From the IMG/VR virus record IMGVR_UViG_3300028805_000037, positions 32,001 to 96,000 of that record: DNA of 64,000 nucleotides, one strand, 5' to 3'. Under the pieces are notes generated by a model. That model was not told where the DNA came from. It was given only the letters and a program-made list of their open reading frames with translations, and did no database searches. The stretch comes from a virus (Duplodnaviria; Caudoviricetes). Both the position numbers and the translations under genes were made by a program. The stretch's first letter is position 1. Every line of letters starts with the position of its first letter. Shown here piece by piece: positions 27,679-55,714 of this stretch.

Positions 27679-27813
27679 CTTTGTATAGCTCAACGGGAGA
27701 GCGGCTTGCTTTGCAAGCGACTGTTACAGATTTATGAACTTATCACTCATAAATTGATGGTAACATAGACTTGATATGTCGAGGTGGTGGTTCAAATCCA
27801 CTTACAAAGGTCA
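27679..27813 (+). ncRNA. tRNA-like RNA with ~60 extra nt (multiple central arms)
   Basis: Acceptor CTTTGTA/TACAAAG; TA-GCTC..GAGC D arm; GGTGG-TTCAAAT-CCACT T arm; three hairpins between D and T arms. Confidence 0.75.
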
Positions 27814-31856: not shown

Positions 31857-34469
31857 TTATAACCATACATATTTAATATTTACTTGTGGGAATTTAACCA
31901 ATTCTATACGCTTTTTTATTTCTGGTCTAATATCAATATTATAATATAACCATATATAAGAACCATCAACAGGTCTATTATCTTCATAGTTCCAAATTAA
32001 AGTACCTGTTCTTACATCAACAGTGTATAAAATATTTGAAATCTCTTGTGTTAAATTTTTGTCTGCATAAACTTTAAAACTTGGATCTGGATATATTACA
32101 TTTTGATTATTTAATTTAATTTTGTTTCCATATACTAAATATTTTTCTCCATTAGCTGGTTTTGTCCAACTATTAAATGTTACTTGATATGTATTTAATA
32201 TATATTGATACGTATAACTTATAGGATCTGTAACTTCATCTGTGATATATTCATCATAATTTTTAAATATATAATCTTTTTCTATTACAGGTTCCTCTAA
32301 CGATATTAAATAATATTCATTCCCTACTAATTGATAGATTGCATTTATATCTAAAGGAATTGCACCAAATTTTAAAGCATTACAAATATAATCTATTTTT
32401 CTTAAACTAGTTTGATCTACAAGAGTTGTTTCATTATATTGGTATAATTTACCAGTTAACTTATCCAAATAAATTGCATCTGTAATTAAATCAGTTGTAT
32501 CTATTTCCCAAGAGCCATTTACTAATATATATAAATTACTATTCATTGTATTAAAATACATCGCACCGTCTGATAATCCGTAAGCAACAGGCTCTGTATC
32601 AGTTACTGTAACTAAATCATAATATGCATTTATTTGGTTCCTTACTTCATAATAGTGATCATTTATATTTAATAACTCATATTTATCATAAGTTTCAATA
32701 CTTTTTTCTGTAAGACTAATTATAGTTAAAGGCTCTTCTTCTGTATAACTTTTCTTAAATAAAATATCTCTATATTGATCATTTACAGACTTTAATATAC
32801 TTACATCATTAAGCGATGAAAACATATCTGCTGTAATTGTTCCTGCTTGTAACACTTCATAAAAGTTATTATTATATAGGATGATATCTCCTATATCATA
32901 ACTTACACTATTGTCATATAATTTAATTTCAGGTAAATTAAGACCTGTTCCTTCTATATTAAAATATGTATTATAAGCTGTTAAATACTCAGCATCAGAC
33001 AATGACTCAAATGTTGCTGTTCCTTCTGATAAAGCATTAACTACTTGTCTAATTCCTAATTGTGTTCCTCCATTCATAGCTGCTTGCCACAATCCAGCAG
33101 TACCATTATCTTGATTTCCTAAAACACAGTTTCTATAATTAATATTACCCATCCACGCAGGTTGTCTGAAATCAAAATATGAGGCAAAATTTTTATAAAC
33201 AAAATTATCACTGACATCTTCTACATAAAGATTTCCTTTTGACTCACGTAAATCAATTTGTATTTTATTAAATATTTTACCAAATGTACTTGCAAAAATT
33301 AAATGGTTGTATGTTTTAAATGTAATCTCATTTATTTTTTCTTCGGAACCTTCTTCTAATATATAAGTTTGTAATACTTTACTGTTATAAATATAAGGCA
33401 CTCTAAAATAAACGTATCCTACTGAACTAAAATCAACTGAAATAATGTTATGTTCTTGTGGTGTACCTTCAAATGTTATTCCAAAATCTTCTAAATTAAC
33501 TTCTTCAGAATCATATTGCCAATAATCATATATACTATTCCAATAAAAATCATACACACCTGATCCACTTACTTTATCACTAAATACAAATTTATTGATA
33601 GATAAATTTTTTAAATTATCAAAACTATCATTTTCGTAAATATCTGCAGTTATAGATTTACTGGAAAGATTTGAAGCAATTGCTTTACCATCCATATAAA
33701 GAGTATATTTTTTTGGAGTTATATCGTCTAATGTAGTAACATATAAATAATTACAATTAACTTTTGATGGTATATTTTTTGGCACCAATGGAACTTGTGT
33801 ATATTCTGTATATACATATCCTGGTTGTATATTTTTATTCGGATTTAAATTTCCAGACTCAATTGAAACTTCACTCGTTAAATACATACTTGGCAAATCA
33901 CCTGGAACCATTTGTTGTGAATATACATAACCTCTATCTCTATATGGTACTATATTTCTATCAGTATCAATGTTACCTAACTGTTTATATAAATCAATTA
34001 TAGACCAGTATGTTTGTGTTAGTTGATCTGTATACAAATATTTAACTTGTGTGTATGAGTTATCAATTAACATATCAGCTGTCCAATTAGAAAGGAAGCT
34101 AAAGAAATTTGCATTATTTAATGCTGCAACTGCATAATAATATTGCGTAGTTAATTCATTATCTGTTAAATAATCAATATAACAAGTCTGTGTATTTTCA
34201 TTTTCATCTTTATTTAGAACCATTGCAATTAAAGTTGCATCATTATGCCCAATCGTAGTTGACCTATATACATAATAGCCTTTCATATCTGTAAGAGACG
34301 AATTTTTCCAACTTATTATATTATAATTTCTTTCATGTAAAACATATAAATCTTTTGGGATACCTATATTAGCACTTGGTAATTTTGCACCATAAAGCCA
34401 AGTATCCCCATAAAGTATAAGTGGATCTAAATTTCTATAGTAAGATATATCTTCAAAATGATTTGTCAT
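31857..34469 (-). CDS. Putative baseplate/tail structural protein
   Basis: FN3-like segment (ISW..GYYVYRS..YYYAVAA); position. Confidence 0.6.
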   Translation of the reverse strand: MTNHFEDISYYRNLDPLILYGDTWLYGAKLPSANIGIPKDLYVLHERNYNIISWKNSSLTDMKGYYVYRSTTIGHNDATLIAMVLNKDENENTQTCYIDYLTDNELTTQYYYAVAALNNANFFSFLSNWTADMLIDNSYTQVKYLYTDQLTQTYWSIIDLYKQLGNIDTDRNIVPYRDRGYVYSQQMVPGDLPSMYLTSEVSIESGNLNPNKNIQPGYVYTEYTQVPLVPKNIPSKVNCNYLYVTTLDDITPKKYTLYMDGKAIASNLSSKSITADIYENDSFDNLKNLSINKFVFSDKVSGSGVYDFYWNSIYDYWQYDSEEVNLEDFGITFEGTPQEHNIISVDFSSVGYVYFRVPYIYNSKVLQTYILEEGSEEKINEITFKTYNHLIFASTFGKIFNKIQIDLRESKGNLYVEDVSDNFVYKNFASYFDFRQPAWMGNINYRNCVLGNQDNGTAGLWQAAMNGGTQLGIRQVVNALSEGTATFESLSDAEYLTAYNTYFNIEGTGLNLPEIKLYDNSVSYDIGDIILYNNNFYEVLQAGTITADMFSSLNDVSILKSVNDQYRDILFKKSYTEEEPLTIISLTEKSIETYDKYELLNINDHYYEVRNQINAYYDLVTVTDTEPVAYGLSDGAMYFNTMNSNLYILVNGSWEIDTTDLITDAIYLDKLTGKLYQYNETTLVDQTSLRKIDYICNALKFGAIPLDINAIYQLVGNEYYLISLEEPVIEKDYIFKNYDEYITDEVTDPISYTYQYILNTYQVTFNSWTKPANGEKYLVYGNKIKLNNQNVIYPDPSFKVYADKNLTQEISNILYTVDVRTGTLIWNYEDNRPVDGSYIWLYYNIDIRPEIKKRIELVKFPQVNIKYVWL

Positions 34470-48040: not shown

Positions 48041-48643
48041 TTATATTCTGGTATCTGTTTCAATCAAACCTGTTTTTGTTGAAATAACACCTGTAGCTAT
48101 ACAATTTACTCTCTGTATAATCATCATATCATTTGCTCTCTCAATAGAGAAATCCATATTATTATTGTCAAACCATACACCATAAATCATTATTGTTTTC
48201 GCACCTGTAGTTAAAGTCTTTCCGCCTTCACCCGCTCTTTCAACACCAGGAACATTTACATAAATCATTAACGGGGAATTTTGTTTCATAATATCATATG
48301 ATTTACTATAGCCAAATGCTTGTGCAATTGTTGATTCATATAAAACTACTCTCTCTAATTCCAATGAATACTCTGGTAAACCAGGAACAACTTCAACAGG
48401 TCTACCTGCAGTATCTATATTCAATTCTCTTCTATATTCTGCTTCTCTTTTTGTAATAATTTTAATTCTTTGTATCGCACCTACAGGTTTGTTCACATCT
48501 ATTTTACTAACTAAATTATTAATTATATTCTCTTGAGTTTTAAAAGTTGATCTCATTATAGTCCATGGAGCTGCATAAAGAGTAGCATATATCCTCGGGC
48601 GCATCTCTAGATCACGAAGTATATCATCTTGTTCTGCTGCCAT
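48041..48643 (-). CDS. Tail tube-like protein (paralog 2)
   Basis: GAIQ, REL..TAGRPVE..PGLP.Y.L.L.R.VLY, IYGVWF. Confidence 0.65.
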   Translation of the reverse strand: MAAEQDDILRDLEMRPRIYATLYAAPWTIMRSTFKTQENIINNLVSKIDVNKPVGAIQRIKIITKREAEYRRELNIDTAGRPVEVVPGLPEYSLELERVVLYESTIAQAFGYSKSYDIMKQNSPLMIYVNVPGVERAGEGGKTLTTGAKTIMIYGVWFDNNNMDFSIERANDMMIIQRVNCIATGVISTKTGLIETDTRI

Positions 48644-49900: not shown

Positions 49901-49987
49901 ATTATTTATCCTCCGATAAATAACTCAAAACAAAATATGGCAGGAGTGTGAGTTGCACTCTTTTCCCGTTGCAATCGGTAGCCATAT
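49901..49987 (-). ncRNA. Structured cis RNA element (copy 1) in endonuclease leader
   Basis: Three-way junction, CAACUCA loop complementary to downstream UGAGUU, SD in a hairpin loop; covaries with copy 2. Confidence 0.75.
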
Positions 49988-50000
49988 AAACCTTATATTA

Positions 50001-50027
50001 AGTATGATTATGATTATTTTGTCAAGG
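50001..50027 (-). promoter_or_regulatory. Candidate late promoter motif (copy 2)
   Basis: CCTTGACA-N5-ATCATAAT-CATACT. Confidence 0.5.
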
Positions 50028-50050
50028 ATGGTTTTTGAAGATTTACAATA

Positions 50051-50635
50051 TCATCTGTTTCCAACAATTCCTGCAGCACGAGCTCTGCAATTCTGTATTA
50101 TTTTAATATCATCAACATTATCGACACCAAATTCAATGTTGGAATCCAAAAACCAAACACCGTAAATATACCAGGTTTTTGTTAATAACTGATCGCTACT
50201 TGTTTTATCTTCATCATCAGGGCAAATTAAATTTATTTTTATTAATAAAGGTCTTGTCTGTTTCGATATATCTAAACTATCATCTACATCTGAATAAAAT
50301 TCATCTGATACCATTGAATCATAAAGAACAATTCTATCTAAAGACAAATCATAGCCAGGTAACCCAGGATAAGATTCTACCGGTCTACCTGCAGTTTTAT
50401 AATCAAGTTCTCTCCAAATATTTAATTGTCTTTCATTTGTAATCTCTAAATTTTGGATTGCACCAATCTGTTTTCCATTAGCAGCAGCTTCAACAAGTCT
50501 ATTATATAATTCTGTAGGTTTTGTAAAATCTGTACCTGTAAAATTAAATGGCACACTATATATTTCTATATAGGCTTTGTATGCTGTTTTTAAACCCTTT
50601 ATTAGACTGTTTTTATAATCTCCAGTAACTGCCAT
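50051..50635 (-). CDS. Tail tube-like protein (paralog 1)
   Basis: First structural gene after the sheath; shared motifs with paralogs. Confidence 0.7.
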   Translation of the reverse strand: MAVTGDYKNSLIKGLKTAYKAYIEIYSVPFNFTGTDFTKPTELYNRLVEAAANGKQIGAIQNLEITNERQLNIWRELDYKTAGRPVESYPGLPGYDLSLDRIVLYDSMVSDEFYSDVDDSLDISKQTRPLLIKINLICPDDEDKTSSDQLLTKTWYIYGVWFLDSNIEFGVDNVDDIKIIQNCRARAAGIVGNR

Positions 50636-50647
50636 ATATTATCCTCC

Positions 50648-51901
50648 TTAATTAATTTTTCTAATCCAATCTTCAACTTCCTCTATATTCCAAAATATCT
50701 TGTAATTCAATTTATTCTTTTTAAATGTTTCTAATTTTCTCGCATCTAAATCTGTCCAAACATAGATTGCAGTTCGAAAGAACTTGCTTTTTTTAGATTT
50801 AACTTGCCAACTGCTCAATATATTAAGATGTTCTAAATTATTCTTATCAAAAGATTCTTTTCCGTGTGTCCAATGCCCATTATATTCAATATATAAATCT
50901 AGGCTCTTAATATAAAAATCACATTGATAAGGATATAATTCATTTTTATATTGTCTAATAATATCTTCTTTACCAAACTTAGTTAATAATAGTTGATACG
51001 TTTTTTCTTCAAATTTAGATTTATTATATGTATTATTTTGCTTCTTAGTACTCCATTGTTTCTCTAAGATTATAGCTTTATGTTCTTTATAGAAATCCCT
51101 ATATTCTTGAGTTTGTGTATAATTTTCTACACCATATCTTTCTAGGTTTGTTTTGCGCTGCTTTTCATTAATCTTTTCCACATCTAATTTATATTTCTTT
51201 GATTTCTGAAAACTCGTTGCTCCAAACTTATCTAAACAGGTCTGCTTTACCTTATCTTTATATTCTTTGGTTTGTGAATAATAATCTACACCATACTTAT
51301 CTTTACATGTCTGGTTTGATTTTTTAATATAGTCGTCTGTCTGCGTGTAATGTTTTTTTCCGAAATTCTCCAAGTTTGTTAATTCTCTTTGCTGTTGAAT
51401 CAAATATTTATTGTCCTGCATATATTTTCTATGCTGATCTGATTGAGAATAATATTCAGTTCCATACTTCTCTAAGCATGTCTGTTTATATTTATCTTTA
51501 TAATCTTGTGTTTTTAAATAACTATCTACACCATATTTATTTAAACATGTTTGTTTTATTTTATCTCGACATTCTTTTGTTTTTGCATAACTTGTAGTAT
51601 TATATTTTCTTAAACAAGTTTGTTTAACTTTATTTACATGTTCTTGTGATTTATTCATACAACTCATTGAACAATATGTTTGATATCCACCATGCGTACG
51701 TTTAAATTTAATAATCTTTCCACAAGTTTTACATTTGAATACTTTATCAAAAGAAATATCATGTTTAATTCTATAACATAATTCTTTTATGGATAACTTA
51801 TAAAAAATTGCTGTAGCTTCAACTTCTTTCGTTATGTATTTTTTTATAACTTTGTTATAAAATTGTTTATGACTTTTTATATACTTAACTAATTCTTCCA
51901 T
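50648..51901 (-). CDS. Hef-like free-standing endonuclease, paralog of 48656-49900
   Basis: About seven (C/N)LxK(Y/F)G repeats; YQCDFYIKSLDLYIEYNGHWTHG. Confidence 0.75.
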   Translation of the reverse strand: MEELVKYIKSHKQFYNKVIKKYITKEVEATAIFYKLSIKELCYRIKHDISFDKVFKCKTCGKIIKFKRTHGGYQTYCSMSCMNKSQEHVNKVKQTCLRKYNTTSYAKTKECRDKIKQTCLNKYGVDSYLKTQDYKDKYKQTCLEKYGTEYYSQSDQHRKYMQDNKYLIQQQRELTNLENFGKKHYTQTDDYIKKSNQTCKDKYGVDYYSQTKEYKDKVKQTCLDKFGATSFQKSKKYKLDVEKINEKQRKTNLERYGVENYTQTQEYRDFYKEHKAIILEKQWSTKKQNNTYNKSKFEEKTYQLLLTKFGKEDIIRQYKNELYPYQCDFYIKSLDLYIEYNGHWTHGKESFDKNNLEHLNILSSWQVKSKKSKFFRTAIYVWTDLDARKLETFKKNKLNYKIFWNIEEVEDWIRKIN

Positions 51902-51988
51902 CTCTATACTCCTATAGATTAACTCAATTTTTATATTTACGGCAGGGTAGTGAGTTGCTACCTTTTCGGTTGATCTGACCTAGCCGTA
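51902..51988 (-). ncRNA. Structured cis RNA element (copy 2) in endonuclease leader
   Basis: Same fold as 49901-49987 with compensatory changes. Confidence 0.75.
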
Positions 51989-52001: not shown

Positions 52002-54056
52002 TTAAGCGTTTTGGAAAGTTACTCCGAATGTTACTAAAATGTAGTTAACATCAGGTGTTGGATATATTCTAAATGATACATTAATTTGATTTGGATAATT
52101 TTGATCTTGCGCAATTACTAAGTTCGTATACGAATAAATATCGTTGTTTGCTAGGAAACTTGAAAGTATAGTATTAACTGTAGCTGTCATTTCTGATATT
52201 GTAGCTGCTCCAACAAATCTTGTATTTATATATGCTTTATCTAAAGCAAGTCTTAATGTATTTGATATAACGTCTTTTATTTTTGTAATCTTAATTTCAG
52301 ATTTTACATAATCACCTGTAGATGTTGAGAGTGCATGTCTTATTTTTGCTACTGATGTTCCTTCTGCGCCTTCAAGAACTAAACATCCATAAGATGCTAA
52401 TACATTCTTTTCTTCTCTTGTATACCTATCATTTACAGTAACATTCGATAATGTTTTACCTGTTATAGGTTCACCACAAGTAAAGTTATTATTACAGATA
52501 ATACCAGCAATAGCTGCTGCAGCATACATACCATTAGCAACTGCTACTGTTCCTGTATCTAACGTAACCGATACTTGACCTGGTGTTACATAAACAACTC
52601 TTGCAGAATTTGCAGACGCAGCATCTTTTTTATAAGTTTCAATTGCGGTATCATAATCTTCCGTTTCAATTAAAGCGTTATTTGAAACAATCGCAATTCT
52701 TTCTTTTCTTTCAAGAGTTGAACTCATATTCTCAACATGTGTTTTGCACATACTTATAATCTGAGCCATCGTTATACTGTTATCAGGATCGTTCTCAATT
52801 TCAAACGGTGATATCATAGGCAATATACAATATGCATTTATTTTAGTAGCTTGTCTAAGAGCAGTAGATAATCCAGCTGCATCTATAAGTCCAGTTGTTT
52901 CATTAACTTCAGGCTGAATACAATAGAAAACTCTTGCACCATTATCATAAGCAACTTGTGCACCTGCAGAAATTGTATTCTCAGCAGAAGGCTCACCATA
53001 AACAGAATAAATACTTGAGAGTCTTGTATAAGATTTTGGTTCTCTATCTGCAGTATTTTTTGCTACTGTATAACTAACTGTGATTTTATACTTCCCATCT
53101 GGACCTTCAACTGGCATATCCCCATCTGGAGCTTTCCATAATAATACAGAATTTTCTACTGCAAAAAAATCTTTCTCTGAATTATCATAAACTCTACTAC
53201 TTATTGCATCTACAGCTTCAGAAGGTGCTACTACAATTTCTGGTTGCAATTGTGCAGAATAATAAGTAGCATTAGGATCTACAATTTTCCAATTCGTATT
53301 TAAATAATTTATATTTGCTTCACTAGGTGAAGTATGATCTTTTATACATTCATAAAATAAAGCATTTAAATATATAAAATCTCCAACAACATAATCTGTT
53401 TCAGGAGTCCATACTTTATAATGTATCGTTGTTTCTTCTGTATCAGTACTTATCCAATAATCAAATATAGCTTCATCTACTCCGTCTTCTAAAACACTAG
53501 CATTTTCATCTAACCATGGAGTTACTAAACTACTTACTGCTACATCTTCTGTAATCTCAGAAGCGTTAGCTTCTAACCAATCAGCAACAGGTTCGGTAAC
53601 TGTACCTGCAGTTGTAACACTATAATATTTATCATTATAAAATAATATATCACCTACTTCACAAGTAGTTCCATCTTCAGGATCTATTGCTGCTGGGATA
53701 GTTCCTTCTGAATTAACAATATAATAACTTTCTCCAAAACTTATTACTTGTGATTGACTATAAAACTCTCCTGGTATAGCTTGTGCAGCTTCAGGTGTAC
53801 TCGTTGTTGTAACTTTATAATAAGTATCATTGTAATAAACTATAGAACCTGCTTCATATTCTGTACCAATTACAGGTACAGTAGGTCTTTCAATTGGAGG
53901 TAATAACTCCAATAGTTCATTACTTATTGATTTTGTTTCTTTACCTTTACCGATAATACATACAGATAATAAACCTGTATTAACGTCTGTAGATATATCG
54001 TCATTGATTACGACATATGTACCTGGCTCTGTGTAATTATTTGTAAATGATGGCAT
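52002..54056 (-). CDS. Contractile tail sheath protein with inserted repeat domain
   Basis: YTEPGTYV N-terminus; HVENMS...ER; C-terminal INVSFRIYP..VNYILV. Confidence 0.85.
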   Translation of the reverse strand: MPSFTNNYTEPGTYVVINDDISTDVNTGLLSVCIIGKGKETKSISNELLELLPPIERPTVPVIGTEYEAGSIVYYNDTYYKVTTTSTPEAAQAIPGEFYSQSQVISFGESYYIVNSEGTIPAAIDPEDGTTCEVGDILFYNDKYYSVTTAGTVTEPVADWLEANASEITEDVAVSSLVTPWLDENASVLEDGVDEAIFDYWISTDTEETTIHYKVWTPETDYVVGDFIYLNALFYECIKDHTSPSEANINYLNTNWKIVDPNATYYSAQLQPEIVVAPSEAVDAISSRVYDNSEKDFFAVENSVLLWKAPDGDMPVEGPDGKYKITVSYTVAKNTADREPKSYTRLSSIYSVYGEPSAENTISAGAQVAYDNGARVFYCIQPEVNETTGLIDAAGLSTALRQATKINAYCILPMISPFEIENDPDNSITMAQIISMCKTHVENMSSTLERKERIAIVSNNALIETEDYDTAIETYKKDAASANSARVVYVTPGQVSVTLDTGTVAVANGMYAAAAIAGIICNNNFTCGEPITGKTLSNVTVNDRYTREEKNVLASYGCLVLEGAEGTSVAKIRHALSTSTGDYVKSEIKITKIKDVISNTLRLALDKAYINTRFVGAATISEMTATVNTILSSFLANNDIYSYTNLVIAQDQNYPNQINVSFRIYPTPDVNYILVTFGVTFQNA

Positions 54057-54071
54057 TTATATATCCTCCAA

Positions 54072-54278
54072 TTAATAAATTTTTATTATTCTAATTAATT
54101 TTTTTCCTGCATATTCTTTAACTTGCTTTGTATAAGCTACAACCTTGATCTCATTTGTTTTCAAATTAAAGTCTTTATAACATAAATCTCCAAACGTAAT
54201 ATTTTGTATTAACGCTTGTTTAACAGTAGGTTGTATTGTAGAAACAGACTCAACCACTTTACTTTTCCTTCTAACCAT
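54072..54278 (-). CDS. Small hypothetical protein
   Basis: GGAGGAG SD before ATG 54278. Confidence 0.65.
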   Translation of the reverse strand: MVRRKSKVVESVSTIQPTVKQALIQNITFGDLCYKDFNLKTNEIKVVAYTKQVKEYAGKKLIRIIKIY

Positions 54279-55533
54279 TACTCTCCTCCGTATAAAAATT
54301 GCCAAAATTAAAATATTTATTTACCAATTTTAAACTGCATTCTTTTCGTTTATTGTTTTCCTTCACTACAACATACTTTAAATGACTCATTGTTATTGCA
54401 TTGTATCTCTTATTATTTATTACTACTAAATCTTTTGGTTGTATTTTATATCTTTGCTTTCTAATACCTGGCTTAAAACCTCTCCTGTTACACTGTAAAG
54501 ATCTATTGTTTCTATGTTTTTGTTTTAATTCTATAGGTTTCACTCTGTTTTGAACACTACCACCTGCTATACAAAAAGCATCGTTATAATGTGTTTTCTT
54601 TAACCCTAATTCTAGTCTTTGCTGCTTCGTTATATATCCAAATGTTTCGTACATATCAGGTATATCTTTTTGAAATCTTTTATGTATAATTGACATAAAT
54701 GTATTTGATTTATACTCTTTACTACTTTTTCTGATACTAAATTTATTTTTATGTAAATCTTTATGACATTTACTGCATAAAGTTATTAGATTGTCTGGTC
54801 TATCAGTACCACCCTGACTTCTAAATTTTATGTGATGAACTTCTAATCTTGTGTTTTGTTTACCGCAATGCTGACAAGTTCTTTTATCTCTTGTTAATAC
54901 ATATTGTTTTACATTCTCAAACTCCAATTGTTTTCCTTGTTGATATTCTTTACCTTTAATATTAAGATTTTGTATTTTTTGTATATCAAAATTTGCTGTT
55001 TCTATTATCACATTATTGGTAGGAAGTATTAATTTAATTCGTTTTATAAGCTCTAAATGTGTTTGATAACGTCTCTCTATAGAAGGTGGTAACCAACCAA
55101 CATGTCTTTTCCTATTATTAAATCTAGATTCTCTATACCAATGATGCCTACATCTTCTTCCTTTTCTATACAACTTTCTCTCTAATAATCTCATTTTAGT
55201 TTTATTATCCAAAACCAAAGTACCACTTATTAGCTCTTTCTTACTACTTACCGCACTAAACCCAATGTTCTCATAACCGCTATCAATACCTAGTGTAACT
55301 TCTTGTTTACAGTCTCTCGTTTGAACCAACATCTGAATAACAAAGAAAGGATATGTTTTAACTATTCTTGCTAAACCTTTCTTTATCAATCGTTTAGCTT
55401 TACAAGGTGTTGTTGGCATTAAAGGTTGCCCTTTTACATTGAGGACGAAAACATAAGTTTTCCTCTCAATCCTGTTAGGCTCAGGTAGATTCACATCGGA
55501 GTTGTTACAAGTCAGAGTATCTCTTCTACACAC
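54271..55533 (-). CDS. iscB: IscB RNA-guided endonuclease (start codon uncertain)
   Basis: PLMP, RuvC-I GIDSG, Arg-rich bridge helix, RuvC-II IE, HNH (HHI..GGTD..NL..LC..CH), RuvC-III THYNDA. Confidence 0.92.
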   Translation of the reverse strand: MCRRDTLTCNNSDVNLPEPNRIERKTYVFVLNVKGQPLMPTTPCKAKRLIKKGLARIVKTYPFFVIQMLVQTRDCKQEVTLGIDSGYENIGFSAVSSKKELISGTLVLDNKTKMRLLERKLYRKGRRCRHHWYRESRFNNRKRHVGWLPPSIERRYQTHLELIKRIKLILPTNNVIIETANFDIQKIQNLNIKGKEYQQGKQLEFENVKQYVLTRDKRTCQHCGKQNTRLEVHHIKFRSQGGTDRPDNLITLCSKCHKDLHKNKFSIRKSSKEYKSNTFMSIIHKRFQKDIPDMYETFGYITKQQRLELGLKKTHYNDAFCIAGGSVQNRVKPIELKQKHRNNRSLQCNRRGFKPGIRKQRYKIQPKDLVVINNKRYNAITMSHLKYVVVKENNKRKECSLKLVNKYFNFGNFYTEESNG

Positions 55534-55714
55534 TGTGCCTTTAGGCTCGTTTTAATGTAGAAGTTATAAAGCTACGAACTTGTGAAGCATCCGTAGGTAT
55601 GTTCTTTTTCTTTCCTTGTAACTGCTGTTTTAACATTACTGTTATAACCTCCTAATCAGCTCTTTCGTTGTAATTCTCATTACAAACCGATAACTTTAAT
55701 TATCGGTAGCTGAC
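54280..55714 (-). mobile_element. Non-autonomous IS200/IS605-derived IscB element
   Basis: omegaRNA plus iscB, no tnpA in the window; downstream boundary approximate. Confidence 0.75.
55460..55714 (-). ncRNA. omegaRNA/HEARO scaffold
   Basis: Begins GTCAGCTAC-CGATAA-TTAAAG-TTATCG; GTCAGCT pairs with AGCTGAT; CCTACGGATGCTTCACAAGT and CTCCGATGTG segments; directly upstream of iscB. Confidence 0.8.

Follow-up and report, generated by a model that had tools for sequence, protein, structure and literature searches.

Within a 64,000-nucleotide stretch of the phage record IMGVR_UViG_3300028805_000037 (Caudoviricetes; positions 32,001 to 96,000 of that record; hereafter the window), two structured RNA elements on the minus strand each lead a gene for a Hef-like putative homing endonuclease. 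Compared with Rfam and with relatives in other viral contigs, both elements are a variant of int-alpA, a catalogued Rfam motif without a published explanation. We estimate at about one in two the probability that this int-alpA-type 5′ leader belongs to a mobile cassette of leader and homing endonuclease, seated in a tail operon with high expression, and restrains nuclease translation through a two-site brake gated by RNA dimerization. Translational control through two alternative sites is probable, as one loop covaries with both, and dimerization as the trigger that moves the loop between them is put forward tentatively, at somewhat below even odds.

Comparative evidence for an int-alpA-type fold

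Each leader is predicted to form three paired regions (P1, P2 and P3) around a junction, followed by a linker, a site complementary to the P3 loop (site 1) and a hairpin whose GGAG loop carries the Shine-Dalgarno (SD) sequence and constitutes a second match to the P3 loop (site 2; Table 1). An earlier description made from the letters of this DNA (the sequence-only reading) had placed both copies on the minus strand, and the positions of all stems, loops and start codons agree exactly with it; the span that it gave, 49901-51988, holds both leaders but also takes in one nuclease gene and one putative tail-tube gene. Its observation that the stems vary yet stay paired is confirmed by compensatory changes at one P1 pair, all three P2 pairs and most of P3. 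None of 100 shuffles contains the core pattern, of which the window has two occurrences. Because the folding energies of the single sequences are unexceptional (z-scores of -1.2 and -1.0, the minimum-free-energy structure of copy 2 missing the junction), support for the three-way junction comes from sequence comparison: across 59 relatives, 92.6% of cells are paired, compared with 37-50% for slid partners, and two-sided changes occur in 11 of the 13 pairs.

At the Rfam gathering threshold neither copy is reported. In E-value mode, copy 2 matches int-alpA (RF02996) end to end over model positions 1-71, with 34.8 bits (E 6.5e-5) against a cut-off of 35.8, and copy 1 has no match at E≤10. The int-alpA junction bases UA, GAAAA and CU are present in both copies, which parse identically, and the cut-off is exceeded by relatives that share their P3 loop and site 1 (L064, 42.3 bits; L061, 37.3 bits). 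A covariance model built from the 59 relatives, with the CAACUCA loop type left out, recovers copies 2 and 1 (53.3 and 48.0 bits) and finds no further copy elsewhere in the record. The sequence-only reading could not assign the element to a known family; the Rfam check now places copy 2 at int-alpA, 1 bit under the cut-off and with same-loop relatives above it. As the window copies fall below that cut-off, we file them as an int-alpA variant and not as formal members.

RF02996 is listed in Rfam as type Gene; sRNA (small RNA). We take int-alpA to be among the 224 candidates that Weinberg et al. published in 2017. The main text of that paper contains no discussion of int-alpA (PMC5737381), and a literature search found no published function for it. 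The location beside integrase or alpA genes that its name implies, a definition taken from the name alone, does not describe these leaders, which sit in a tail operon, and most relatives likewise precede genes other than integrase or alpA.

Pattern scans of viral contigs gave at least 236 distinct elements in at least about 300 loci; here and below, family counts come from the matches listed in these scans, and the family is larger than counted. The search patterns fixed the junction bases, so that their conservation in our own set is by construction, and sampling of the P2 center was stratified; the Rfam int-alpA consensus independently carries the same junction bases. The matches of a first, loop-based scan were mostly due to chance, with 7 of 57 fitting the fold.

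A loop with two alternative targets

Comparison across the family supports a pseudoknot between the P3 loop and site 1, just after P1, and the same loop bases match site 2, before the start codon. Over 92 distinct loops, pairing with site 1 averages 5.46 bp, against 2.75 bp in 1000 loop swaps (maximum 3.17), and pairing with site 2 averages 4.82 bp, against 2.91 bp when swapped (maximum 3.36). Site 2 reaches at least 4 bp in 122 of the 141 distinct loops that have site 1; among these 122, the same loop bases serve both sites in 107, and site 1 is longer than site 2 in 84, equal in 27 and shorter in 11. Since the same bases are used, the two pairings would be mutually exclusive, and the family thus shows the mutually exclusive pairings at a ribosome-binding site (RBS) that are expected of a riboswitch, with the window copies offering 3-4 bp at site 2. 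The bases of site 2 mostly stay unpaired within a weak local hairpin, and the spacing between the two sites peaks at 12-14 nt. Both window copies have a 6-bp site 1 and spacings usual for the family (11 and 13 nt in copies 1 and 2), and the start codon lies 18-72 nt after P1 in 129 of 133 elements when genes are called permissively.

These results lend family-wide support to the pseudoknot of the CAACUCA loop with UGAGUU that the sequence-only reading had proposed, and the covariation of the loop with two sites backs its idea of a translational switch. It missed the second target of the loop at the SD sequence and the self-complementary P2 loop described below, and the invariance that it ascribed to the CAACUCA loop holds between the two window copies and dissolves across the family, in which 141 distinct loops occur.

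Site 1 of copy 1 shares bases with the foot of the SD hairpin, whose computed energy is -8.6 kcal/mol with these bases and -4.7 without them; copy 2 has no such overlap. The loss of three pairs from the hairpin of copy 1 upon pseudoknot formation would suit an activator resembling the IncI repZ pseudoknot, in which pairing of the loop at or into the SD hairpin opens it and the pseudoknot or dimer turns translation on; activation by the repZ pseudoknot was reportedly described by Asano and Mizobuchi in 1998, in work cited by PMC10724649. We judge an activator very unlikely, as site 1 and the SD hairpin overlap neither in copy 2 nor in most relatives, pairing at site 2 covers the SD sequence itself and should block the ribosome, and no leader peptide is conserved. 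A peptide encoded upstream by a 27-codon frame across copy 1 was also considered in its own right and rejected, copy 2 having no start codon there.

Many relatives appear to begin at a promoter, with a predicted transcription start near P1: 50 of 217 elements have a -10-like hexamer 5-9 nt before P1, compared with about 5 per bin. Before copy 1 there is a weak promoter-like signal (Table 1), whose 19-nt spacer falls outside the 16-18 spacing used in our promoter scan, and that scan of the region remained at chance level (30 versus 25.7). An element that often begins at the predicted transcription start, and whose site 2 is weak in the CAACUCA subfamily, might be a static, compact fold that protects the mRNA 5′ end or insulates the RBS without any switching. 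Such a structure would leave unexplained why two exclusive targets have been kept through more than 100 loop versions and why P2 covaries, and we regard it as highly improbable.

A self-complementary P2 loop

The center of the P2 loop has, by comparison of relatives, been kept self-complementary. A palindrome of at least 4 bases is found in 57% of 42 distinct P2 loops versus 26% in shuffles, and the central two bases of 5-nt P2 loops in elements with the pseudoknot are GC in 80 cases, AU in 56, UA in 1 and GU in 1. Searching every viral contig for a P2 center with G and then a base other than C returned one match, and a scan for a first base other than G returned at least 120, nearly all of them AU. 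No position outside P2 covaries with the center (at most 0.12 bit). Adjacent bases cannot pair with each other. In OLE and GOLLD, adjacent-base covariation among AGCU, GGCC and GAUC palindromes corresponds to cross-chain pairing seen by cryo-electron microscopy (bioRxiv 10.1101/2024.12.08.627333). The P2 loops show two sequence features of symmetric kissing-loop RNA dimers, a self-complementary loop and adjacent-base covariation, and the switching of their center between GC and AU suggests a signature of pairing between two molecules.

For the window copies, the computed self-duplex of the copy 1 core UUGCAA (-13.5 kcal/mol, versus -0.8 for the hairpin) and that of the copy 2 core GAUC (-9.0) compare with -3.1 kcal/mol for the mixed duplex, and co-resident copies always differ in their P2 loop. 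A subfamily before DUF927-like genes that lacks the pseudoknot (L304, L306, L307, L315, L320, L321 and related loci) has the same junction and a degenerate P2 loop, and is a natural negative control: the loop is not self-complementary in 7 of 24 members of this clade, compared with 1 of 138 elements with the pseudoknot. As these members form one clade, the degradation of their P2 loop is not independent evidence.

Contact between molecules would also serve a trans-acting repressor resembling the C4 RNA of phage P1 or the CI RNA of phage P4, for which the junction would be trimmed to a stable small RNA without site 1. The free P3 loop, aided by P2-P2 contact, would then bind later or incoming transcripts at site 2, the role of site 1 being merely to stop a nascent leader from repressing itself, and the whole would act as a delayed shut-off or immunity device. 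Two targets per loop and 141 distinct loops resemble antisense specificity systems, P2 pairing offers a second contact, and there is a precedent in the C4 antisense RNA, which represses icd-ant from the same operon (PMC8198154). We nevertheless consider a trans-acting repressor unlikely: P1 is followed by no conserved terminator or processing signal, the linkers ranging from U-rich to A/C-rich; Rfam gives no C4 match; and the P3 loop is common to both window copies, so that specificity would rest on P2 alone.

A further alternative is a ligand- or host-protein-sensing, riboswitch-like element, in which a factor bound at the junction would move the P3 loop between its sites and P2 pairing would be secondary or ligand-assisted. 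The junction bases, conserved independently in the Rfam consensus, the classic position before the SD sequence and the two exclusive pairings all fit such an element, and the hairpins of guanidine-II, which kiss in a ligand-dependent manner, offer a precedent for ligand-assisted pairing of P2 (PMC5558903). However, the downstream genes have no metabolic theme in common, and a riboswitch acting in cis leaves a self-complementary loop without an intramolecular partner unexplained, which makes this alternative distinctly unlikely in our view.

Leader and nuclease as a mobile cassette

Both leaders and both Hef-like nuclease genes lie within the tail operon of a phage whose record spans 300 kb (a giant phage), in the minus-strand order sheath, cassette 2, putative tube gene 1, cassette 1, putative tube gene 2. 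Comparison with related phages indicates that leader and nuclease are one mobile cassette, gained and lost together, whose parts also reassort. In L421, L422 and L424, phages 97-99% identical in their tube genes, an empty site consists of an 18-nt spacer with neither leader nor nuclease, and in L416 both cassette positions are empty. At the cassette-1 site, L423 differs in both leader and DUF7487 gene; at a third site, L424 has yet another DUF7487 gene, preceded by a leader with 96% identity to copy 2; and in L417 (3922-4038, plus strand) the leader is kept and the nuclease has shrunk to an 11-residue stub that joins its first and last codons.

The DUF7487 proteins of the window are putative homing endonucleases, combining, as do free-standing Hef-like homing endonucleases, a family match (DUF7487 and phrog_3339) with optional presence at an intergenic site. 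Nuclease 1 consists of DUF7487 repeats and a C-terminal PD-(D/E)xK-like motif recognized by eye, and nuclease 2 is 42% identical to it; a sequence search of the PDB found no solved relative of the C-terminal nuclease domain, and NCBIfam gave no match.

The proteins downstream of related leaders fall into many clusters, and the genes include those of DUF1376, HNH with AP2 or NUMOD4, DUF927, HTH_36, endonuclease VII, DUF559, Dam, glycosyltransferase and DUF7487; members with the CAACUCA loop lie before putative endonucleases belonging to several unrelated types. Six other Hef-like paralogs in the record have no leader element. The suggestion of the sequence-only reading that the RNA travels with the Hef-like family therefore applies to this locus, where leader and nuclease form one cassette, but not to the relatives before unrelated genes or to the six leaderless paralogs, and its ribozyme suggestion met with no ribozyme family match at E≤10 in Rfam.

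That the leader is co-mobile with the nuclease, has a conserved core and complements, with the 3′ strand of P1, the start of the downstream tube gene (8-9 bp) could be read as the mark of a self-cleaving ribozyme or of an RNA cofactor or guide of the Hef-like nuclease. We find this scarcely credible. Only int-alpA appears in Rfam at E≤10, the unrelated downstream proteins and leaderless paralogs argue against a cofactor or guide role, the leader outlives the loss of its nuclease in L417, and the complementary stretch is a family-wide invariant core that meets a common Met-Ala start. Two specific forms of guide were tried and rejected: one using the P1 3′ strand against the downstream gene start, as that stretch is the invariant core of the family, and an OMEGA/HEARO-type guide RNA, in view of the unrelated downstream proteins, the paralogs without RNA and the variable loops, which match the leader's own RBS region.

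Some further observations concern the cassette sites. Comparing window 50051-50062 on the minus strand with L421, L423 and L417 shows that filled alleles have in common a change in the final codons of the upstream tube gene that sets them apart from empty alleles, which suggests a cassette boundary or cut site in the end of that gene. Relatives without cassette 2 carry a perfect hairpin between the sheath gene and tube gene 1 (L417:3270-3330; L421:1-30). In L047:2061-6400 (plus strand), from an unrelated T4-like phage, the same leader and a DUF7487 gene again separate tail sheath and tail tube genes, and they directly follow a sequence resembling a T4 late promoter.

A predicted dimer-gated brake

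How events follow one another, which way control runs and whether leaders dimerize are inferred parts of the proposed brake. A new transcript would hold its P3 loop parked on site 1, which is made first and is usually the longer match, leaving in place only the weak SD hairpin, so that some nuclease would be made. As transcripts accumulate, two leaders would pair through their P2 loops, and in the dimer the P3 loop would shift to site 2, its own or its partner's, where it would block the ribosome. The outcome would be a negative feedback on transcript number that needs no protein, for which reason the leader could work before unrelated genes.

Several points weigh against this proposal. Covariation cannot separate ON from OFF control, nor action in cis from action in trans. 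In the window copies, site 2 matches the P3 loop over 3 bp (copy 1) and 4 bp (copy 2), near chance, so that the OFF pairing in these copies rests on homology. Many P2 loops are self-complementary at two bases only (C.U flanks in 27 of 138), which would be weak for a dimer without help, and the strand comparison of G.U with A.C gave 35 versus 39. The relatives also share kinship, and their counts derive from listed matches to patterns that fixed the junction bases.

A broader form of the proposal would make int-alpA-type leaders a widespread, protein-free, self-counting switch, in which a P2 dimer hands the anti-SD loop from its parking site to the RBS. Such a switch could supply portable feedback for dose-sensitive genes such as those of homing endonucleases and replication initiators, with the loops as specificity codes between co-resident cassettes; we think this generalization rather unlikely.

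Control of phage homing endonuclease translation by RNA structure at the RBS is established in T-even phages, with simpler hairpins (PMC2988022), and a literature search on kissing-dimer phage leaders found nothing. This locus adds empty-site and reassortment evidence, the exhaustive test for G without C at the P2 center and the weak site 2 of the CAACUCA subfamily. With the dimer-gated brake, an orphan Rfam motif gains a precise and testable mechanism for which natural compensatory variants exist. Should dimer-gated control prove true, it would represent autoregulation by transcript number without a protein product, of which we found no report for bacterial or phage mRNA leaders; it would account for the ability of selfish nuclease genes to settle in late operons with strong expression, and synthetic biology could gain small, orthogonal dosage limiters from it. 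If the switch in cis alone holds, the result would be a useful but modest annotation.

Features of the locus and its surroundings

Table 1. Positions in the window of the two leaders, their parts and the adjoining genes.
Feature	Position	Strand	Remarks
Leader copy 1: three-way junction (P1, P2, P3), linker, site 1, SD hairpin	49901..49986	-	own covariance model 48.0 bits
Copy 1 P1	49986-49981/49941-49936	-	
Copy 1 P2	49978-49966	-	
Copy 1 self-complementary P2 loop core UUGCAA	49969..49974	-	
Copy 1 P3	49960-49944	-	
Copy 1 P3 loop CAACUCA	49949..49955	-	predicted partner of site 1, weakly of SD loop
Copy 1 site 1	49922..49927	-	predicted 6-bp pseudoknot partner; final three bases can alternatively extend SD hairpin
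Copy 1 SD hairpin	49904..49921	-	GGAG loop = site 2, 3-bp match to P3 loop
Copy 1 start codon of nuclease 1	49900	-	
Weak promoter-like signal before copy 1	49995..50025	-	sequence only; perfect -35 hexamer, 19-nt spacer, 4/6 -10 ending 8 nt before P1
Leader copy 2, same architecture	51902..51988	-	Rfam int-alpA 34.8 bits; own covariance model 53.3 bits
Copy 2 P1	51988-51983/51943-51938	-	
Copy 2 P2	51980-51968	-	
Copy 2 self-complementary P2 loop core GAUC	51972..51975	-	not complementary to copy 1 core
Copy 2 P3	51962-51946	-	
Copy 2 P3 loop CAACUCA	51951..51957	-	
Copy 2 site 1	51921..51926	-	predicted 6-bp pseudoknot partner
Copy 2 SD hairpin	51903..51918	-	GGAG loop = site 2, 4-bp match; -4.0 kcal/mol
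Copy 2 start codon of nuclease 2	51901	-	
Putative tail-tube protein 2 gene, after cassette 1	48041..48643	-	36% identical to tube gene 1
Hef-like putative homing endonuclease 1, 414 aa	48656..49900	-	Pfam DUF7487 E 4e-17; phrog_3339 homing endonuclease E 2e-19
Putative tail-tube protein 1 gene, between cassettes	50051..50635	-	inferred from position after sheath gene; conserved in relatives
Hef-like putative homing endonuclease 2, 417 aa	50648..51901	-	DUF7487, phrog_3339
Tail sheath gene, directly upstream of cassette 2	52002..54056	-	phrog_2839 tail sheath E 2e-19

Putative tail-tube protein 1 has no Pfam or PHROG match. On the opposite strand at copy 2, a plus-strand terminator-like site (51967-51986) was considered as the end of an antisense RNA, and this candidate was rejected, as copy 1 has no such site and relatives often have a U-rich 5′ flank. 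Upstream of the sheath gene lies an IscB gene (window 54271-55714, minus strand; NF040563, 316 bits) with its HEARO RNA (Rfam, 87 bits; 55485-55714, minus strand), the IscB gene being missing from the related phage L416. Elsewhere in the window, on the plus strand at 27679-27810, an Rfam tRNA match of 38.4 bits is spread over 132 nt and is not called by ARAGORN. Its acceptor, D and T arms are apparently intact, about 55 extra bases occupy its center and a promoter-like sequence lies just upstream, so that it is possibly an interrupted tRNA or a tRNA-like RNA.

Outside the window, Hef-like paralogs near positions 257842, 262584 and 296979 of the record have long, different hairpins directly before their start codons, and the two at 258-263 kb have an additional motif in common upstream. 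A 161.6-kb ENA contig matches the window region at 100% identity, and the contig of a relative measures 161.8 kb; the Hef-like paralogs beyond about 160 kb of the record may belong to another genome.

Comparison with known systems

With int-alpA the leaders share the three-way junction, the junction bases and the 3′ tail, and the loop and tail of the int-alpA consensus are also complementary. The window copies differ in lying below the Rfam cut-off and in leading homing-endonuclease cassettes in a tail operon, and the second target, the SD hairpin and the self-complementary P2 loop fall outside the structure line that Rfam shows.

In T-even phages, hairpins that sequester the RBS of I-TevI, I-TevII, I-TevIII, segB and Aeh1 mobE similarly limit the translation of homing endonucleases through RNA structure; they are single, very stable hairpins that are relieved by a late promoter inside them (PMC2988022). 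Here, in contrast, it is the loop of a weak hairpin that carries the SD sequence, and the predicted source of control is a separate junction that acts through tertiary pairing.

The C4 RNA of phages P1 and P7 and the CI RNA of phage P4 are small, multi-stem phage RNAs in which a loop covaries with repeated targets near a downstream RBS, as in the leaders. The role of C4 has been described (PMC8198154). Neither RNA matches the leaders in sequence or by model, and the leaders have both targets no more than 30 nt downstream in cis and no evident RNase P processing signal.

The RNA switch formed by IncI-alpha repZ and Inc RNA has a hairpin loop for which two partners compete, one of them a site just upstream of a hairpin containing the SD sequence, where a pseudoknot forms. 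The leaders differ in that no leader peptide or antisense gene was found and in that the competitor would be a second site in the same RNA.

The HIV-1 dimerization initiation site (DIS) is a symmetric kissing loop similar to that proposed for P2. In the kissing loops of OLE L9.3 and GOLLD L21a, palindromes likewise switch among AGCU, GGCC and GAUC, their central two bases remaining self-complementary (bioRxiv 10.1101/2024.12.08.627333). These loops belong to large non-coding RNAs or viral genomes, whereas the dimer predicted here from sequence and duplex energies would form between 60-nt mRNA leaders and be coupled to an anti-SD loop.

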